Assembly: GCA_041740355.1 (NCBI GenBank)
Contig: JBGSMD010000016.1
Span: 128,001-192,000, forward strand
Length of the DNA: 64,000 nt
Origin: Bdellovibrionota bacterium
GTDB lineage: Bacteria > Bdellovibrionota_C > UBA2361 > CALJRW01
Reading direction: 5' to 3'
Each line of letters begins with the position of its first letter. Within the stretch, counting starts at the first letter, position 1. Under the pieces are notes generated by a model. The model saw only the letters and a program-made list of their open reading frames with translations, ran no database searches and was not told where the DNA came from. This document shows positions 946 through 10,517 of the stretch, piece after piece. Both the position numbers and the translations under genes were made by a program.

Positions 946-3288
946 TTATCCCTGTTTTAATCCAATATAACGACGAAATCTTGGAACTTCACAGCGAAAC
1001 AATTCGCTACTATTAAGCGCAAGTTTTTTGCTTTCATAAATTGCGTTTGGATTTTGTTGAAATTGCAATAATCTCTTGGAAATTAATTGATAATCTGTGA
1101 AAGAAACATTTAATAATTTATTTGGGCATTGAAAATAAGCTTCTACTGTCCAATATTCAATGGCAAACGCTAAGGAATACAAAAAACTTAGCTGCCTAGC
1201 GTTCATTCTTTTTAGATGAGCGACTATTATTATATCCCCCATTCTAGAAAATACTACAAAGCGAGAGTTGTTTGGCACAAACAAAGTGTTCCGTCTAGTA
1301 TCAATTAATTTTTGATATACATCCCGAGCTTTTGATAGTTTTAACTTACCAATAGTTGCCAAATTCCCCTTTTTATCCAAGTAGATAAAATCTGTCTGCT
1401 GCTTAAATTTCGTTTCAGTTTTAATTTTAATAAGATTAACCAATTCTTCGATACTGAGTTTGTGTAATTTGGCATGCTTTAACTCTTGATAGCAGCGCTC
1501 TTCATGGAGCATTAAAAAAATACTCTCCATTAGTCTAATAGACTTTTTATCTGCACCGATCAGTCGAAATTGGCCTTTTACTTTTAGCAAGTCAACCTGT
1601 AGATCCTTTTGAAAATCTATTTTCATAACGAAACGAATTAAACCGGAAAGCTGAAATTGTAAATTTGCTATACCTAAATCACTATTTGCTGGAAACGTGA
1701 TCAACAATACTCCCGGAAAGATTTCAGTTTGCCAGGTTAAGGAATCACTAATCCGCTGAATGGATCTGCCAATGTAATTTGAATAGTAACTTTTAGTGTA
1801 TGATTTATCTAAAAAAATTATGGCAAATTCAAGTGGCTGATTGCTTGCGAGCGAGGCACGCGTGGCGGCTAACCAAGCTTTTAAACTAAGGGATTTAGTT
1901 CTTTGGGAAACTTGTTGCCGATAGATATTTAGCAATAAGCTCCGGCTAAAATCAATCCGTAATAGTACAATTAAAGAAGCCCCAATGATAATAACACTAT
2001 CTAATAAAATAATTCCTTGAATATTAGAGTTTGCTATATAGATTAAATAATACTGCAAAGGAATTGTAAAAAGTAAAAAATAAACTAACATAAATCTCTG
2101 GAACTGTATCTCCGTTTTAGTTACTTCAATTATCTTATAGCTTGTTTCAAAAAATGTTTTGGCTACAATAGCAATCAAAACTAAAACGAAGTAATTTAGT
2201 AAAACACTGGAACTATAACCAACCCAATAGGGAAATTTTACATAAAGTAGTGTTAAGATCGACAAGGTCAATCCTAAAAAAATTAATGTGTAAACAATCG
2301 TCCGTTTTGCATATTGATAGGCCTGCTCTAAGTGTCCTTCCTTTAAAGCAAGGTGAATATCCATTGCCAATGACCTAGATACTTGGATGGCAAAGCCAGA
2401 GAGAAAACTAATTGAAAAATATAAGAAAATATATTGTCGCCAATAGTAATTACTATGTAAATATAAGAAGCAACCGAGGCAAAGTAAATAAAGATAGTAG
2501 GCTACTGGTAATGAATAAATCTGGCGAAATACCCTAGATCGCAATAACCCTGTAAGCAAGTATCGTAACTGAATAGGCTTCCGATAGGTATAAAAATTAA
2601 ACCTCAAAGAGTCTAATGCAATTTTGATATGATAATTAATATATAATAAGTTTCCTATTAGATAGCCAAGTATATAACTATACTCCCCCATAAAGCGATA
2701 ACAACTTAGCATTAAAATGATGGGGATAATTCGATAAAAAGTAGAGATTAGAAACTCCTTTTTTAATCGTCTTTGAGTATAGGAAATTGCCCATAAAGCT
2801 AAACTTAAACTCTCTAAAGGCAAGATTATTAAGGTTGTGAAAGCAATCAGCAAAGACGATCGATCCATTTCTAAAAATATTGCTAAAGCAATAATTCCAA
2901 GACTATTTATTAAACCCAGCACTATACTAAAGTTAATAGCCAAGTAATAATAGTCATTGCATTTTTCTTGATTAAATTTCTTTTGAAATTCAACTAACTT
3001 TATCCTAAAAAACTGCATGCCTCCTTTTAGTAAACCTTTCAAACAAAAACTCAAAAAAATAATTATTGCTACTAGGCTAAAGAAGTTAGAGCGAAATAGA
3101 AAATAAATTATTGCCATCTCAAAGATTACAATCAGTTTAAAAACTAATCTCGATAGAAGTGGAAAACGAATTCTATATATTAAATATCTTAAAAAAGTAA
3201 AAAAACTCTGACCTTCCTTCCAACGTCTTAAGCTCTCGAACCTTTGCTTTTCTATTTTTGCTCTTAGGATGAACTTTTGAATTAACAT
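946..3288 (-). CDS. Polytopic membrane protein (~12 TM, MOP/Wzx/MATE flippase-like) with C-terminal cytoplasmic region; RT-associated
   Basis: Hydrophobic helices across ~aa 45-445 in two groups, then ~330 soluble residues. ATG overlaps the RT stop (TAATG at 3290-3286). Confidence 0.75.
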   Translation of the reverse strand: MLIQKFILRAKIEKQRFESLRRWKEGQSFFTFLRYLIYRIRFPLLSRLVFKLIVIFEMAIIYFLFRSNFFSLVAIIIFLSFCLKGLLKGGMQFFRIKLVEFQKKFNQEKCNDYYYLAINFSIVLGLINSLGIIALAIFLEMDRSSLLIAFTTLIILPLESLSLALWAISYTQRRLKKEFLISTFYRIIPIILMLSCYRFMGEYSYILGYLIGNLLYINYHIKIALDSLRFNFYTYRKPIQLRYLLTGLLRSRVFRQIYSLPVAYYLYLLCLGCFLYLHSNYYWRQYIFLYFSISFLSGFAIQVSRSLAMDIHLALKEGHLEQAYQYAKRTIVYTLIFLGLTLSILTLLYVKFPYWVGYSSSVLLNYFVLVLIAIVAKTFFETSYKIIEVTKTEIQFQRFMLVYFLLFTIPLQYYLIYIANSNIQGIILLDSVIIIGASLIVLLRIDFSRSLLLNIYRQQVSQRTKSLSLKAWLAATRASLASNQPLEFAIIFLDKSYTKSYYSNYIGRSIQRISDSLTWQTEIFPGVLLITFPANSDLGIANLQFQLSGLIRFVMKIDFQKDLQVDLLKVKGQFRLIGADKKSIRLMESIFLMLHEERCYQELKHAKLHKLSIEELVNLIKIKTETKFKQQTDFIYLDKKGNLATIGKLKLSKARDVYQKLIDTRRNTLFVPNNSRFVVFSRMGDIIIVAHLKRMNARQLSFLYSLAFAIEYWTVEAYFQCPNKLLNVSFTDYQLISKRLLQFQQNPNAIYESKKLALNSSELFRCEVPRFRRYIGLKQG

Positions 3289-4592
3289 TAATTTAATTGA
3301 TAATCTTTGTTGCGTTTCAATCTATTTCGCATATCTAATACGGAAACTAAACCTAGCTGACGAATCTTTCGATAGGTACAATACTTAAAAACCCGATCAT
3401 GAGAAGTTCCATAGATGAAACGCAAGGAAACTTTTGCCAACCACTTATCAAAAGATTTAAATGAGCTGCGATCATCACAGTGCATGATTAAATCATAAAA
3501 ATAATGATCTCTTCCAAGGTTTGTCAGATAATAATTCAAAGAGTTAATTATCGCTTGTAACAAATTAATCTTTGAGGAACAAAGTTTTTTATTTATGAAA
3601 TATGAATGTCTGGCAATCTCTAATATCTCTTGCTTTATGAAGTTGATCCGTCGATCTGATAAAAATAGTCCCCCCTCGGAGTTAAGCTTAAACCCTAGAT
3701 ATAAAAGTGGTTTATTTTTTATTACGCTACTAAAAACCCCTCTTTCCAATTTCTTTTCATTTAACTTGAGATTCAATTCAGAAAGTTGTTTTTCCAAGAA
3801 AAGACAGACATTGCTCACTACATTCTCTGATTCATGAGCAATTAAAAGATCGTCACCATAGCGACTATAAAAAACTTTGAAGTTATCTCTAATATCTCGA
3901 TCAACATTAACTAAGTAAAAATTTGCAATAAAACATGAGATCGAACAACCAGTTGGAACACTTGCAGATAAAAGAGTAATTTCTGATTGATTGGAAGTTC
4001 TAAATTGCGGACCTACTATCTCATTTAATAATTCCCAAAAATAATTTTCTTGTTTCGGGATTGCTAGTTTAAGCTTCGCAATTAAGATCTGTGGATTAAT
4101 ATGATCAAAATAGCTTTTGATATCACATTTCGCATAATATAAATCAACATCTGATTCCTTAATAAATTGTCGGCAATTCTTAATAGCTGAAATGCTAGAA
4201 AAACCTTTGCGATATGAATATAATGAATCTAAGTAATATTTATCTTGCAAAGCTCCTTGAAGAATATTTGCCAATGTAGCTTCAAAAATCTTATCGATCC
4301 AATTGCTTAGATAAATGGTTCTTTCCTTATTGCTTATTTTAACAATGATTTGCTTCTTAATTTCGGGGAAATATTGCTTTTGTTTGATTGCTTTACAGAT
4401 TTCATCAATAATTAAACCACGATATAATAAGCACCATTTTAAACTTACTCCTTCAGCCAAAGGACTGGAATCCAATTTTTCTTTATCTCCCATGCTTCTT
4501 TGATGAAGCTTAAAAAATACATCCTCATAGTGATCGCGACGAGCTAGTTCTTTTATTATATTTAATTTAGATAGTTTAATTGTTTTTATCAC
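3288..4592 (-). CDS. Reverse transcriptase (unclassified, UG/DRT-like)
   Basis: RT motifs KERTIYLSNWIDKIF, YSYRKG, KCDIKSYFDHI, VPTGCSISCFIANFYL, RYGDDLLI, YLGFKL. GTG start; no endonuclease domain. Confidence 0.93.
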   Translation of the reverse strand: MIKTIKLSKLNIIKELARRDHYEDVFFKLHQRSMGDKEKLDSSPLAEGVSLKWCLLYRGLIIDEICKAIKQKQYFPEIKKQIIVKISNKERTIYLSNWIDKIFEATLANILQGALQDKYYLDSLYSYRKGFSSISAIKNCRQFIKESDVDLYYAKCDIKSYFDHINPQILIAKLKLAIPKQENYFWELLNEIVGPQFRTSNQSEITLLSASVPTGCSISCFIANFYLVNVDRDIRDNFKVFYSRYGDDLLIAHESENVVSNVCLFLEKQLSELNLKLNEKKLERGVFSSVIKNKPLLYLGFKLNSEGGLFLSDRRINFIKQEILEIARHSYFINKKLCSSKINLLQAIINSLNYYLTNLGRDHYFYDLIMHCDDRSSFKSFDKWLAKVSLRFIYGTSHDRVFKYCTYRKIRQLGLVSVLDMRNRLKRNKDYQLN

Positions 4593-4615
4593 TAAAAGCT
4601 TGTTTGCAAGGAGTT

Positions 4616-4828
4616 AAAGTGGGGTTAGGGGAAATCGAAAGATTGTGTTGGAACAACTAAGTTTTTAAGTTAAGTAGTTAGCGAAGCTAAGTAGTTAGCT
4701 CAAAGAGTGAGTTATTTCAATATAGTCTGGATGTCTTATGAGTTGCAGGCTCCTCCCGTAGCACTTAATTGCAACTCCCGAGACATAAATGGGAAGGTGG
4801 TATTACCACAACACCCTAACCCTATTTC
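4616..4828 (-). ncRNA. Putative RT-associated structured ncRNA (template/primer candidate)
   Basis: Terminal inverted repeats GGGTTAGGG (4622-4630) and CCCTAACCC (4814-4822). Internal hairpins at 4797-4809, 4731-4786, 4678-4690, 4647-4657 and 4633-4644. GC-richer than its flanks and directly upstream of the RT. Confidence 0.7.
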
Positions 4829-4837
4829 AGATTAACA
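4829..4837 (-). promoter_or_regulatory. Possible extended -10 promoter (TGtTAATCT) for the ncRNA-RT transcript
   Basis: Minus strand reads CTGTTAATCTGAAATAGGG, which places the start site about at the 5' inverted repeat (4822-4823). AT-rich DNA makes chance matches likely. Confidence 0.35.
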
Positions 4838-4932
4838 GATTTTACCCTATTAATAAATTATGTTTTTAGATTAAGATGAAGAAAATACTTTAATCAATTA
4901 TGACGATCCTCCGATTTCTACTTTGATTTTTC

Positions 4933-6669
4933 ATGCGCATTATAGCTTTTCTCTTTTTCTTATTTATCCCACTAAGTGCGAGCTGCACAGAGGAGTTCAA
5001 TCTTCAACTATCAGAATTTATTGCTAATGCCACATGTTCCGACCTAGTACCCAAGAGCATCGAAGTTAAATTATCTGCGGGAGGTTTTATTTTTAGCATT
5101 CCAAGTCTTTATGATACCCCAATTATCTCTTCAACTCTGGTCTGTTACCAGCTACTCACATACCTCCATGATTACACAGAAGCATCTCCAGAATCACAAA
5201 TACTAACCTTTGAAGTTAGGGAATCTTCCGGAGAATTCCAATTCCTAGAGAAAAGCGGCCTTATAGATAGTCTTTGTTTAGATGCCGGACTATGTCAAAG
5301 GGGCTTTTTTGATTATTTTCGCTTGAATCAGAATTTGCTCAGTTGCCACGGTGCCAGAACTTTGGCTCTGTCCTTAGAAAGAGCTCTACCTAAGTTCTAT
5401 CGGACCAAGACAAAGATCGTCAAAAAAATGGGTCTTGAAATTCATCCCTTTGTTCCATTTATTCAAAAACTTGAGGAATACTTGAACGATCCTCAAGTTA
5501 AGAATATTTATGCTTCAACAATGAGCCTAGGGGATAAGAGCCTAGTAGAAGTTATTCCAAAACTTAATACTAAATTTTTAAATTTGAGCTTTGATGCCGG
5601 ATTGATGTTAATGAAAAAGCAAGAAAATTTATTTAATCAATTAATCGGTCAATTTTCAAATTTCCAAATAGCCCCAATGACTAGTGGCCAATATTATAAT
5701 AATATTTACCACTTAAAATTTATTACAAGTCCTGAAAATAACAAGTCAGTTGTTTCCTCTATGAATCTTTCTACTCCTGAGAGTACAACTTACATCGACT
5801 TTTTATATTTATTTGATGATTCAGAAATACAGCATGAATTAACTGCGATAACAAAATTAAATAAGCAGCGCTCTTGTCAAACCGAAGAAGATTTAAAGTG
5901 CCTTCTGCGTTTTGCAAACTCAAACTCCAATATTAGTAGTGAGTTTAATTCTTTATTGAAATCTTCCTGTCTAAATCAGGACCCTGTTGAAGATACCAGA
6001 TCAGGCTACTTTGCTTACAATGATGACACTGACTTAGAGCAATATATAATCAAATTTATAAACTCAGCAGAAAAAGAAATTATTCTAATGAGCTATAAAC
6101 TCTCTAATCCAAGCATACTTTCTGCGCTTCGCAAACGTCAAGCTGCTGGACTTAAGGTCTATCTGATTACTGCCTATAAGCCATATTACAATCCAAAGTT
6201 GTTTGATCATTTATATTATGCTGGGAAAGACGATCTTTCGATGATTCCCTATCCACACATGAAATTAATGATTAGCGATCGAGAACAAATGCTCTTTGGT
6301 TCAGGAAATTTTAGCGTCAATGCACTAACTCAATCAGCAGAGATGTTTGGAACTACCACAGATCAAAATGCTATCCAAAAAGCCCTTGCATATGCAGCTA
6401 CATTTGTTCAGGACTTTAACCCCAAACTTTCTAAAAACTTTTACAATCAATCCGTGGAAGATCCATTTTATTCCGTTAATTATTTAAAACAAAATTCATC
6501 GCTTCAAGTTGAATATACAGAGCCTAGCGGAATTAACTGGATGCCATATTACCGAAAGTTTAATCAGCAGGGAAAAGATATTTTAAATCAGTGCAAGATT
6601 AATAATCTTCACTTCGTTTCTAGCCAAAACTTTCAACAATGCTTAGACTTAATTAATAAAAAGTTTTAA
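4933..6669 (+). CDS. Secreted phospholipase D-superfamily protein (two HKD-type motifs)
   Basis: Signal peptide MRIIAFLFFLFIPLSASC; motifs YHLKFITSPENNKSVVSSMNLS and PHMKLMISDREQMLFGSGNFS; FINSAEKEIILMSYKLS segment typical of PLDc_2. Confidence 0.85.
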   Translation: MRIIAFLFFLFIPLSASCTEEFNLQLSEFIANATCSDLVPKSIEVKLSAGGFIFSIPSLYDTPIISSTLVCYQLLTYLHDYTEASPESQILTFEVRESSGEFQFLEKSGLIDSLCLDAGLCQRGFFDYFRLNQNLLSCHGARTLALSLERALPKFYRTKTKIVKKMGLEIHPFVPFIQKLEEYLNDPQVKNIYASTMSLGDKSLVEVIPKLNTKFLNLSFDAGLMLMKKQENLFNQLIGQFSNFQIAPMTSGQYYNNIYHLKFITSPENNKSVVSSMNLSTPESTTYIDFLYLFDDSEIQHELTAITKLNKQRSCQTEEDLKCLLRFANSNSNISSEFNSLLKSSCLNQDPVEDTRSGYFAYNDDTDLEQYIIKFINSAEKEIILMSYKLSNPSILSALRKRQAAGLKVYLITAYKPYYNPKLFDHLYYAGKDDLSMIPYPHMKLMISDREQMLFGSGNFSVNALTQSAEMFGTTTDQNAIQKALAYAATFVQDFNPKLSKNFYNQSVEDPFYSVNYLKQNSSLQVEYTEPSGINWMPYYRKFNQQGKDILNQCKINNLHFVSSQNFQQCLDLINKKF

Positions 6670-8082: not shown

Positions 8083-8302
8083 CTTAAATATCGTTTAAAG
8101 TATTGCATCAGGGATAATAAAGAATTTAATCCTTAAGTGCGAAGCAAGTTGAAATTATTCCATTTCGCTAATTACCTAACTAGCTCCGACTATTTTTATA
8201 ATAGCATATCAGGCCTGAATCTACGACTATATATATTCTTAAATTTATCCTGAATATTAGCCAAGTTTTGGGTTCTAAGTTCGATTAAATTATAAGGCTC
8301 GC

Positions 8303-8698
8303 TTAAGTTTTAGCTCTTATAAAAGAGACCTGAAAGGTTTCCTTAGTAACAGCCTGATAATATGTCCCAACGAGTCGATCCTGAGCGGCATCATAGAGCA
8401 GATTATAATTAGAACCTGGATAATTAACATCTCGCAGTTCAATCATTATCTTAATATTTTCACCGTCTTGAGTTACATTTGCTTCTGATACATTAATTGA
8501 TTGTGGATTAAAATATAAAGCTTTCAAATTTCCATTTGTAGCAATATCTTCAATTGCGATAAGATAATTGCTATCAGTGCGTTTCCAGCGACCTTTAATT
8601 CTCTCGAGCAAAGAAGCATTATCAAGAGCAAATAAATCGCAACTAAGAGTTAACAATATAAATAATAAAGTAATTAGTAATTTTAAAGATTTATTCAT
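8303..8698 (-). CDS. Exported hypothetical beta-rich protein
   Basis: Signal peptide from the ATG at 8698 (MNKSLKLLITLLF); conserved-looking GRWKRTD...YFNPQSINV...YPGSNYNL motifs. Confidence 0.8.
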   Translation of the reverse strand: MNKSLKLLITLLFILLTLSCDLFALDNASLLERIKGRWKRTDSNYLIAIEDIATNGNLKALYFNPQSINVSEANVTQDGENIKIMIELRDVNYPGSNYNLLYDAAQDRLVGTYYQAVTKETFQVSFIRAKT

Positions 8699-9038
8699 AA
8701 TTAGCTCCAAGTTTACGATCTATAAAAATATTAACTTTAAAATATCTAATATTTTCTTATTCTTAATATGGACTAGTAAAAGTTTCAATTACTACCTGAT
8801 GAATTTTTCTAGTATATTTTTATTTTTAGTATAACTTAGAATTACAGGAGTATTTTCGTCCGAACTAAGATGCGCGAATTTATCAATACCAAATGTATTG
8901 CCATTGGCATTTTAGATTCTTCCTTCAGCTACATTATTGTCATCAATATAAATTTTTGCAATACCACTAAGCAATCCTCCCCCATTCCTAGATAGCTAAA
9001 AGATATATTAAGTGAAAAACATTTTTATTTTACTCAAG

Positions 9039-10517
9039 CTATCGATAATCAACTTTGTAAGGACATATCTTAAACCCAGGATTTTTTTTTAGTGCAAAAG
9101 TTATACGACGCATTAACTTCGGGTCCTGAAGACTCTCTTCTTTGTATGGTCCAATAATTAAGCGTTTTCTATCAGAACCTAAGTTCTGCTTCAACAACAT
9201 ATCTTCAATAAATCTTTCTCGATCTATTACAGGATCTGGCGTATGCCAGATTAAAAATACTAAGCTTTGCTCAGGGCATGTTTTAATCATGTTGTGCTTA
9301 GCATTCGACATCATCTGGACACGAAACTGGTAGCGTTCTAAAGTCTGGGGAATTGAGGTGTATAAATATACTAGCTGGCAAGTGATTAATATTAGAGCAA
9401 GAACTTTTTGCCATTTTCCAGATATCCCTAGCCAGCTAGTTAGTTGTTGAAGAACCGGCCAACCAAGCGAACAGATAAGCAAAAAAGATCCCCAAAAAGC
9501 AAACCAATAGCGGGAGCCGTATTGTGGCCAACCATCTTTAGAGTGAAAGGTATAGATAAAAACAATTAAAAAAATATGTAAGAATAAAACATAAAGATAT
9601 TTCGTTCGAAACACCTTATACAGTCCCAACATAAACAACAGAAAAGCTGGAAGTCCAATCAATAAAAGGAATTGATCGTAAAATAAGAAATAAAAGAAAC
9701 GATTAAAATTAGAAAAGAACTGTCGAAAGACATCTTGCCATTTTCCCAATATATGAAGCTCCGTATTTATATGTGATCCATATGTAGTTAGAGAAAACTT
9801 TCCCAACTGATAACTATTGTAAGAAATCACTAGGCCTATCCCAATTATTGCTAGAGTCGTAGTTATCAGTATTGGCACCAAACTTTTACGGACTCCATGA
9901 TAATGAACCAATCCAATCAAAATTGGAAATAAAAAGCAGGCAGTTTCAACAGGTCGTGTCAGGAAACCAAGGGCTGCGAATATTCCAATATAAAAAAGAT
10001 TCTTCTTTTGGCTTTGTTTGAGATATTCATAGAATGCCCAAATACCGGCAGTCGATATAAATAAAATTAATGGTTGAGCAAATAGAGATGCTGCGTATCC
10101 AAAGCTATAAGGTACAAAAGCGCCAAGTAATATTATTATTGCGGCATTTTTTTCATTAGTTAAATCCTTTGATAGGCGATATACAAAAAACAAGCTGAGA
10201 CACATTAGTATTGGATTTAAAACGAATGCTAATCCCAGCTTAATCGCACCAGCTAAAAGCAATGAAAATCCAGGGAAATATTTGGAGAATAAAATACCTC
10301 TTTCATAAACAATGTGTGGTTCAATAAATATATAGCTAAAGTTATTTGCTTTTATATAAAAGGACCCTTCTGAAAAAATCTTGGCCTGTATCCAGTAGCC
10401 AAATTCATCAAAACTATTGGGACGCATTTCAAAGATACAGCAGGAGATAAAAATGTAAAAAACTCCAGCGGCAATGATTACCAAGTATGTCATCTTGTCA
10501 AAAGTAGCTGGTTTCAT
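9039..10517 (-). CDS. GT-C fold membrane glycosyltransferase (ArnT/PMT-like)
   Basis: DE motif after TM1 (SFDEFGY), SKYFPG, TRP, YGSRY; many TM segments. Confidence 0.8.
   Translation of the reverse strand: MKPATFDKMTYLVIIAAGVFYIFISCCIFEMRPNSFDEFGYWIQAKIFSEGSFYIKANNFSYIFIEPHIVYERGILFSKYFPGFSLLLAGAIKLGLAFVLNPILMCLSLFFVYRLSKDLTNEKNAAIIILLGAFVPYSFGYAASLFAQPLILFISTAGIWAFYEYLKQSQKKNLFYIGIFAALGFLTRPVETACFLFPILIGLVHYHGVRKSLVPILITTTLAIIGIGLVISYNSYQLGKFSLTTYGSHINTELHILGKWQDVFRQFFSNFNRFFYFLFYDQFLLLIGLPAFLLFMLGLYKVFRTKYLYVLFLHIFLIVFIYTFHSKDGWPQYGSRYWFAFWGSFLLICSLGWPVLQQLTSWLGISGKWQKVLALILITCQLVYLYTSIPQTLERYQFRVQMMSNAKHNMIKTCPEQSLVFLIWHTPDPVIDRERFIEDMLLKQNLGSDRKRLIIGPYKEESLQDPKLMRRITFALKKNPGFKICPYKVDYR

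Follow-up and report, generated by a model that had tools for sequence, protein, structure and literature searches.

A candidate structured RNA of retron-like layout beside a non-retron reverse transcriptase in a Bdellovibrionota bacterium

Why does a reverse transcriptase (RT) that is not a retron RT stand next to what looks like the RNA of a retron? The question arose in a 64,000-nucleotide stretch of DNA from a Bdellovibrionota bacterium (assembly GCA_041740355.1, contig JBGSMD010000016.1, positions 128,001 to 192,000), called the window below, where a candidate RNA element occupies positions 4614..4830 of the minus strand and its 3' arm ends about 25 nt before the GTG start codon of an RT gene. 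A sequence-only reading of this DNA had noted a retron-like fold in the leader of the RT. We found that the element is real and structured and that it recurs beside homologous RTs, and we consider it probable that it is the separately acting scaffold-and-template non-coding RNA (ncRNA), in the style of DRT9 and DRT10, of a class-2 UG/Abi-type RT that belongs to a new cassette formed with a membrane protein and a PLD-like protein. The element was read on the minus strand and compared with its counterparts at the loci labelled L009, L010, L011, L013, L015, L016, L026, L048, L049 and L054. Its parts are:

4614..4830, minus strand: whole candidate ncRNA, about 205-217 nt, with ends taken from the closing stem alone
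4814..4827, minus strand: 5' arm of the basal stem (a1), perfect core GGGUUAGGG at 4822-4814
4813-4810, minus strand: UGUU following a1, with its G at 4812
4812, minus strand: unpaired G between a1 and P1, read from the sequence
4809-4797, minus strand: P1 hairpin GUGGU-AAU-ACCAC, from the sequence and the minimum free energy (MFE) fold
4796-4791, minus strand: C-tract CUUCCC directly 3' of P1, candidate 5' strand of a pseudoknot, with its complement GGGAGG at 4757-4752
4786-4731, minus strand: P3 bulged stem, whose 17-nt arms (4786-4770 with 4747-4731) are 82% complementary
4786-4781 with 4736-4731, minus strand: lower stem of P3
4777-4770 with 4747-4740, minus strand: upper stem of P3
4769-4748, minus strand: apical loop of P3, 22 nt, carrying CUAC-GGGAGG
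4730-4631, minus strand: variable region, candidate template, 100 nt, G-poor (A32 C24 G9 U35)
4667-4700, minus strand: 17-nt tandem repeat within the variable region, 15/17 identical (88%)
4640-4631, minus strand: 3' junction motif UUUCGAUUUC, at the end of the variable region and abutting a2
4617..4630, minus strand: 3' arm of the basal stem (a2), perfect core CCCUAACCC at 4630-4622

Every helix of the sequence-only reading was recovered at its place on the minus strand. The arms a1 and a2 form 9 perfect base pairs, and in a repeat search, as extended 14-nt arms spaced 183 nt apart, they are 86% complementary. The segment that follows P3 was present as well, being U/A/C-rich and G-poor and not strictly C/U-rich as had been thought. 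A 226-nt stretch spanning the element had an MFE of -54.6 kcal/mol, compared with -42.6 +/- 4.1 in 200 dinucleotide shuffles, of which one folded as well (z = -2.94), and its MFE structure retained the closing stem, the small hairpin and the bulged stem. Taken alone, the fold of the window element is just modestly above chance.

The element was also sought at other loci. A covariance model was built from the single sequence 4728-4830 of the minus strand, with P1 and P3 as its 19 pairs, and searched against 16 sources (166,473 bases, both strands). One significant match besides the sequence itself was obtained, namely L048:5642-5747, at full length, with 22.5 bits and an E-value of 0.0027 (the next match had 0.14), and the RT gene that immediately follows it encodes a protein 38% identical to the window RT. 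In the alignment of the two sequences, which was fitted to the model so that pairing is favoured, 10 of the 19 pairs had changed on both sides and 97.3% of the cells were paired; sliding the 3' partner by 1-3 columns left 0-1 double-changed pairs and 31-44% of the cells paired. Two of the five P1 pairs are among those with compensatory changes relative to L048, and the basal stem adds two more, G-C having become A-U in one pair and U-A in another. We then combined the 5' domains of the window, L048 and L009 in a three-sequence model, which was run with filters off on 15 cassette-flanking stretches (5,714 bases). The top ranks, all of them full-length matches to elements that had not been used in training, were L011 (21.5 bits, E 6.5e-4), L049 (17.3 bits, E 0.0056) and L010 (15.0 bits, E 0.018); L013 scored 6.9 bits. 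When six sequences were aligned to the model, and with the reservation that such an alignment is again fitted to it, 90.2% of the cells were paired, compared with 40-50% after sliding, double changes were present in 19 of 25 pairs, and the upper stem of P3 had compensatory changes in all eight of its pairs with 100% of its cells paired. These covariance models thus found the conserved, covarying structure that the sequence-only reading had asked for at homologous loci.

A further comparison was that of L010 and L011. Their RTs are 70% identical, and the DNA similarity of the two loci begins at the RT start codon, so that they share no common leader. At the other end, the similarity extends about 150 nt beyond the stop codon of the PLD-like gene and covers a non-coding element that has the layout of the window element when it is read antisense to the operon. 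The G.U pairs in P3 of this element would be A.C on the other strand, which supports the strand antisense to the operon. This placement, downstream of the operon and on the opposite strand, speaks for an RNA gene of its own rather than for a 5' untranslated region. The element can stand elsewhere than at the start of the RT mRNA. Altogether 11 elements could be delimited, with closing stems of 9-14 bp in the related loci, and all of them folded better than their shuffles, with z-scores from -1.75 to -9.1, a range that is biased because the elements were chosen by their closing stems. As related enzymes in other bacteria are accompanied by such a folded RNA as well, the element is most likely the RT's own RNA partner and template.

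On reading the loci side by side, we found a shared order of parts. In the 5' half, a1 is followed by a spacer of 3-5 nt with a G in the context G-W-Y, the P1 hairpin, a C/U tract, a GGGR run and P3; after P3 come a variable region of 30-207 nt, a U-rich motif and a2. The G stands 3 nt before P1 in five of the six closest loci (window, L048, L049, L009, L010/L011). The apical part of P3 is a mini-hairpin of 3-6 bp with a purine loop, such as CUAC-GGGAGG, and this loop is complementary to the C-tract in locus after locus: CUUCCC with GGGAGG in the window, CCUCUU with AAGGGG in L048, CCCCUU with AAGGGG in L049, UCCCC with GGGGA in L009, CUCCUG with CAGGAG in L013 and UUCUCC with GGAGAA in L010. 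Two more complements, CCUCUU with AAGAGG in L054 and CUCUUC with GAAGGG in L015, were seen after the idea had been formed. The linker from the loop to P3 measures 3-5 nt in all, which fits the need of an H-type pseudoknot. We put forward, as a hypothesis, a pseudoknot between the C-tract and the apical loop of P3. The U-rich motifs that abut a2 are UUUCGAUUUC, UUCAAUGUUC, UUCAAAAUU, UUUCAAAUU, AAUCAAAUUU and UCAAUUU. Direct repeats of at least 10 nt were present in none of nine other elements, so that the 17-nt tandem repeat is peculiar to the window. In L048, an A-rich 14-nt unit, AAAAAACTTAAGTA, is repeated in tandem two to three times at 5585-5625, just upstream of and outside the modelled RNA.

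To which enzymes does the RT belong? The gene is:

3288..4592, minus strand: reverse transcriptase, 434 aa, GTG start, catalytic motif RYGDD at residues 244-248

The protein matched RVT_1 of Pfam with an E-value of 1.2e-27. Among the PADLOC models the best was RT_UG26 (5.7e-33, 112 bits, profile positions 44-389 of 398), followed by the generic RT model, RT_UG17 (6e-26, a weak 89 bits, profile positions 49-368 of 429), Drt2, UG27, Drt3a and Drt9. The retron models of PADLOC gave 3.8e-16 (RT_I-A), 4.7e-16 (RT_I-B) and, for the weakest, 2e-13, and retron_St85_RT of NCBIfam reached 56.5 bits with a cutoff of 235. An AlphaFold2 model of the RT (pLDDT 93.7) was closest, in Foldseek, to the group II intron RT GsI-IIC (TM score 0.70), and then to the RT-ncRNA complexes of DRT9, over the full length (0.62-0.65); G2L4, the RT of diversity-generating retroelements (DGR) and DRT2 came after these, and retron RTs had scores of 0.45-0.48. 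A sequence-profile search of the Protein Data Bank agreed with this order, the DRT9 chain 9ioa_A (4.1e-29) having the longest aligned span. Both models and folds thus bear out the earlier statement that this is not a retron RT, with UG26, UG17 and DRT9 as better matches.

An exhaustive protein search gave 32 clusters at E <= 1e-30, the nearest of them 40% identical, and a word-indexed search gave three weak relatives. In 30 aligned family members the UG26, Drt9 and UG17 models matched every sequence, with best E-values of 2e-39, 3.5e-33 and 9.7e-30, respectively; UG26 was the top-scoring PADLOC model in all 30, no match was strong, and UG26 and Drt9 scored at least as well as UG17. Judged by these profiles, the RT appears to fit none of the named UG groups well. 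Ser417 is invariant in the 30 sequences; it immediately precedes the last helix (418-427) and is 10-17 residues away from the C-terminus. This invariance and position make it a candidate priming residue, by analogy with related enzymes. Two loci that a search of genome contigs for related loci returned were group-II-like and were set aside as irrelevant. The family profile recognized seven near-identical RT copies in one genome of the order, G009 (for example C7:32151-32795), by a core match alone, at profile positions 54-275; six copies scored 122.6 bits and one scored 122.7, and this RT looks like that of a multicopy group II intron.

We compared the element and its RT with the systems that they recall. 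DRT10 (UG17), which is also treated in 10.64898/2026.04.29.721553 and 10.64898/2026.10.08.757509, likewise has a class-2 UG-type RT of about 430-470 aa. Its ncRNA, of 137-143 nt, has 5' and 3' ends that pair as the stem SL1 (PMC12632851), so that both systems combine a basal stem made from the two ends with several stem-loops. The DRT10 template (A-B-A') has the last stem-loop on one side and the 3' strand of this basal stem on the other, and gives rise to tandem-repeat DNA (PMC12632851; 10.64898/2026.06.29.735271); the ncRNA is transcribed independently, and priming is from a C-terminal Ser or Tyr (PMC12632851), to which the invariant C-terminal Ser of the window RT family would correspond by analogy. 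Unlike in DRT10, the RNA is longer here (about 135-325 nt), has a variable insert and may hold a pseudoknot, a word absent from the main text of 10.64898/2026.06.29.735271; the RT matches UG17 weakly, A-B-A' patterns are not enriched, and the partners are a multi-pass membrane protein of about 750 aa and a secreted PLD-like protein instead of SLATT. DRT9 (UG28) is the closest solved defence RT by fold and by profile, and it likewise has a structured ncRNA upstream of the RT; DRT9 itself uses protein priming, with a poly-U template and Tyr as the primer (PMC12483538), and unlike the present system it has two components, with neither a membrane nor a PLD partner. UG26 is likewise a class-2 RT without extra domains and provides the best model for all 30 family members examined, though its scores are modest. 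Its occasional neighbour, a YcjD-like endonuclease present in 9 of 35 members (PMC9226505), is absent here, and the main text of PMC9226505 mentions no ncRNA, PLD or membrane partner for UG26. Among class-2 UG RTs, ncRNAs are described for UG2/DRT2, UG28/DRT9, UG27 and UG3+UG8 (PMC9226505) as well as for UG17, and the class has been linked to TERT (PMC12632851). The template/pseudoknot core of telomerase RNA offers an analogy, as a ring closed by a helix with a pseudoknot and a template region; it differs in the order of its elements, the pseudoknot is merely suggested in our case, and no repeat product is known here.

The retron msr-msd RNA is matched in its terminal a1/a2 repeats, in the unpaired G just 3' of a1, in a conserved 5' stem-loop domain and in a variable 3' region of hairpins, the complement of which would be hairpin DNA. 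The retron-like order claimed by the sequence-only reading stands as a conserved layout, and membership of the retrons fails on the RT. Since a basal stem is also a hallmark of the DRT10 and DRT9 ncRNAs (10.64898/2026.06.29.735271; PMC12632851), whose RTs are closer to the present one than retron RTs are, 'retron-like' is to be taken here as a likeness of architecture, perhaps of logic, and not as membership. Rfam, which includes retron msr models, gave four matches at E <= 10, all of them snoRNA, U6atac or RAGATH noise far under the gathering score, and the ncRNA family is absent from that database. To our knowledge, membrane and PLD-like effectors such as those of the cassette are unlike those of any known retron type.

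From these comparisons we propose the following mechanism. The basal stem a1/a2 would join the 5' and 3' ends of the ncRNA, and the 5' domain (P1, C-tract and P3) would probably be the scaffold that binds the RT, with the GGGAGG-like motif in the apical loop of P3 able to pair with the C-tract. The template would probably be supplied by the variable region that separates P3 from a2, or else by the conserved U-rich motif before a2. The RT would copy a portion of the ncRNA to single-stranded DNA, by analogy with DRT9 and DRT10, priming most likely from a protein hydroxyl, for which Ser417 is the candidate, and the DNA product may be a signal or effector input for two envelope proteins. A defence role is suggested by the RT's relatives alone; the genomic context gives it no support.

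A number of results weigh against this interpretation. The scores of the RT against the UG models are far under those usual for members. The poly-U template of DRT9, copied to poly-dA, is universally conserved, and the longest U run in 4614-4830 is 3. The A-B-A' candidate UUUCGA-UUUC at 4640-4631 was matched by 1102 of 2000 shuffles, and for 8 of 10 loci the patterns of this kind next to a2 did not exceed what shuffled sequence gave, the exceptions being L048 (110 of 2000 shuffles) and L016 (459 of 2000). Neither neighbour of the RT gave a SLATT match in Pfam, PADLOC or NCBIfam. The genes around the window cassette encode a pilin-like protein, a PMT_2 glycosyltransferase and SdrD_B surface proteins, and are not defence genes. 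For the pseudoknot, complementarity in hand-chosen windows was 5.65 for cognate and 4.24 for non-cognate combinations, and 15 of 100,000 permutations across 10 loci reached the observed sum, with the proviso that the baseline of complementarity is high whenever a pyrimidine tract faces a purine loop. On the model alignment, which was built without that pairing, a modest 86.1% of the cells were paired, compared with 44-78% after sliding, and 4 of 500 shuffles were as high. Transcription, strand and ends of the RNA at 4614-4830 are unproven predictions from the letters of the DNA. The extended -10 element suggested in the sequence-only reading is weak, as the TAAAAT at 4844-4839 follows GGG and not TGn, and a consensus scan found neither a promoter-like site nor a terminator on the minus strand. 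In 8 of the 11 elements a -10-like TAnnnT precedes a1 by 8-22 nt, and on a rough estimate about half would have one by chance.

The searches of whole genomes belong on the same side. In the organism's own genome, the three-sequence model returned at E <= 10 just the two training elements and missed that of the third paralog. In 124 genomes, the L049 element had an E-value of 2.55 and stood among about a dozen chance-level matches, and the L011 element was lost to filters. A two-sequence model gave 11.6 bits to the antisense of the window element, as much as it gave to L049, and with default filters this model found no further family member. A loose descriptor (closing stem, hairpin, C-tract and complementary loop) had 41 seed matches in the own genome and 28 in the reversed genome, and a simple scan for a closing stem and a hairpin was not specific. 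Whole-genome searches are thus without power, and the homology claim rests on the restriction to cassette flanks, on the full-length register of the matches and on the comparison of L010 with L011. The loose descriptor, when run on the related loci, recovered six expected elements, including that of L054, which lay outside its design, and six other places.

We also observed a marked asymmetry between the strands. The whole element had an MFE of -82.7 kcal/mol (z -7.8) as plus-strand RNA, with 10 G.U pairs, compared with -54.6 (z -2.9) and 2 G.U pairs on the minus strand. The effect resides in the variable region: as minus-strand RNA it gave -14.1 kcal/mol (z -2.57), whereas its complement gave -34.9 kcal/mol as RNA (z -7.47, equalled by none of 200 shuffles; 37 pairs, 6 of them G.U), which is a further point against the proposed reading, and -10.5 kcal/mol (z -2.71) as DNA. 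The 207-nt insert of L048, which is G-poor on the RT strand, went in the same direction (-70.6 kcal/mol for the complement and -62.9 for the RT strand), and the antisense z-scores of L009, L010 and L011 were somewhat better too. MFE z-scores do not decide the strand. Three readings of the asymmetry can be offered: the insert may be a template whose DNA copy is the structured species, as in the logic of retrons; the window RNA may be made from the plus strand; or the asymmetry may be a by-product of a near-palindromic repeat.

We considered the possibility that the functional RNA of the window comes from the plus strand, antisense to the RT and co-directional with the PLD-like gene, with a G.U-rich hairpin at 4640-4728 as its main feature. 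The energies just given speak for it, and the helices of the window's 5' domain carry no strand information, because none of their pairs is G.U relative to L048. Yet in the six aligned sequences the P3 core favours the RT-sense strand, with 48 of 48 cells paired, seven of them G.U, and no mismatch. G.U pairs, counted as sense/antisense, were 9/2 in L054, 8/0 in L015, 8/4 in L026, 6/2 in L011 and 3/2 in L016, and the sense MFE was more stable by 9-15 kcal/mol in L054, L016, L026 and L015. The pairing of C-tract and loop requires G.U pairs, which the other strand would turn into A.C, and the sole plus-strand promoter-like sites (4832-4861) lie downstream of the element, so that we regard this alternative as improbable. 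We think it a little more improbable that the system is a true retron relative, in which the RT would recognise the 5' domain as the counterpart of msr, use the 2'-OH of G4812, beside the a1/a2 duplex, as a primer and copy the variable 3' region, the counterpart of msd, to a branched, multicopy single-stranded DNA that folds as a hairpin. Its appeal lies in the flanking arms, the G placed 3 nt before P1, the variable hairpin, 30-207 nt long, that separates the conserved domain from a2, and the far greater self-complementarity of the sequence that such a DNA would have. Against it, the RT lies outside the retron clade by PADLOC, NCBIfam and Foldseek, no Rfam family was matched, the 6 G.U pairs that stabilize the complement would be weak as G.T in DNA, and DRT9 and DRT10, the nearest characterised relatives, prime from protein (PMC12483538; PMC12632851).

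The position of the element in the window, on the strand of the RT and shortly before its start codon, could point instead to a cis-acting 5' leader, such as an attenuator, a thermosensor or a protein-binding site, that controls the RT operon and is not a template; eight of the 11 loci have a 3' arm that either overlaps the called RT start or stops 10-55 nt short of it. This we hold to be slightly less probable still, given that the L010 and L011 elements lie downstream of the last gene on the other strand, that the L009 element ends 287 nt before the RT, and that in every one of the related RT families described in PMC12632851 and PMC9226505 the RNA acts in trans, both as scaffold and as template. 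Chance secondary structure in AT-rich intergenic DNA, devoid of function, would agree with the low z-score of the window element, with the descriptor matches in the reversed genome and with the whole-genome searches, none of which was significant. It hardly accounts for a full-length match upstream of an orthologous RT with 10 of 19 compensatory pairs, for three untrained elements ranking first in the cassette flanks or for the conservation of a non-coding element between L010 and L011 when their leaders are unrelated, and we give it next to no weight. The DRT9/DRT10-style scaffold-and-template ncRNA is the reading that we retain.

A bolder version can be formulated, which we find rather unlikely as a whole but worth stating. 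The element would be the RNA subunit of an undescribed system that unites the RT with a flippase-like membrane protein and with a secreted nuclease or lipase of PLD type, and would consist of a closing helix, a pseudoknot and a hypervariable insert. Its core would be selected for structure on the RT strand and its insert on the complement, and the insert would be copied to a single-stranded DNA, bearing hairpins or repeats, that acts as a signalling molecule. If so, such a system would stand mechanistically between retrons, with their structured DNA, and the telomerase-like DRT9 and DRT10, with protein priming and a closed RNA ring. Class-2 UG RTs have recently yielded unexpected chemistries, each set by a dedicated ncRNA: de novo genes (DRT2), poly-dA (DRT9) and telomere-like repeats (DRT10). 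The window family, with an RNA of about 200 nt and an RT of 434 aa, is a defined candidate that could show the product of another branch of these enzymes, and whether the retron-like logic of a structured DNA product exists outside retrons.

The two other genes of the cassette, and the places of the two paralogous cassettes in the same genome, are:

946..3288, minus strand: membrane protein, 780 aa, translationally coupled to the RT, with about 10-12 hydrophobic segments in its first ~450 aa
4933..6669, plus strand: PLD-like protein, 578 aa, with one HxK(x)4D motif and an N-terminal signal peptide, divergent from the RNA element
G000:C11:29114-30367: L009 cassette, a paralog in the organism's own genome
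G000:C63:95271-96551: L010 cassette, a paralog in the organism's own genome

The C-terminal part of the membrane protein (about 330 aa) is soluble by hydropathy. The protein had no match in Pfam, PADLOC or NCBIfam, and the sole lead was a weak one, to MOP/Wzx-type flippases (Atlas score 0.76); its homologues come after the RT in other cassettes. The PLD-like protein matched PLDc_2 (5.1e-16), DrmC (2.3e-17) and NucT (8.8e-9) and is 34-37% identical to the third gene product of the paralogous cassettes. Signal-like N-termini were present in all five PLD-like proteins inspected, and the HKD motif in four of them. In view of these signal peptides, both partner proteins appear, from their sequences, to act at the envelope. 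The association of the RT with a multi-pass membrane protein and a secreted PLD-like protein is a conserved cassette, and literature searches found no description of it, nor of envelope-located partner proteins for any RT system. The terms 'PLD' and 'phospholipase' are absent from the main text of Mestre et al. (PMC9226505), the supplements of which were not covered.

Three divergent copies of the cassette are present in the genome, that of the window and those of L009 and L010. The two paralogous RTs are 30-31% identical to the window RT, the three RTs being mutually 30-35% identical, and each copy of the cassette has its own RNA element, 25 nt upstream of the RT in the window, 287 nt upstream in L009, and downstream and antisense in L010. 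Further cassettes were found in one congener, in other genomes of the phylum (12 of 124 at E <= 1e-50) and in a marine metagenome contig. Their gene order is RT, membrane protein, PLD-like protein, with the PLD-like gene before the RT in two loci.

Some candidates were dropped along the way. MAFFT alignments of the leaders were left out of model building because they were not structure-consistent. A perfect 12-bp inverted repeat at L011:6347-6592 (AGGGTTAAGGTT/AACCTTAACCCT), similar to the window arms, was judged a coincidence, since it spans a weak SspB-like open reading frame upstream of the L011 RT (Pfam SspB, E 5e-4, under the cutoff) and the covariance model does not find it. The best non-training match of the three-sequence model in the phylum, G021:C8:190960-191025 (24.6 bits, E 0.04 per genome), came from a genome where the RT family was not found, and is probably due to chance because it is 66 nt long for a model of 106 positions. 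Four DNA-contig runs compared with 4200-5100 gave no variants, joints or depth information.

Two minor observations concern the flanks of the cassette genes. Between the RNA element and the PLD-like gene, the window contains at 4825-4902 an imperfect direct duplication of about 40 nt, with the units 4850-4862/4890-4902 and 4825-4835/4864-4874, which may be a pair of promoters or operators serving the divergent genes. In the distant cassette L053 (G084:C405), PLD-like genes related to the third gene of L012 flank the pair of RT and membrane protein on both sides, at 3171-4673 and 8292-9415.

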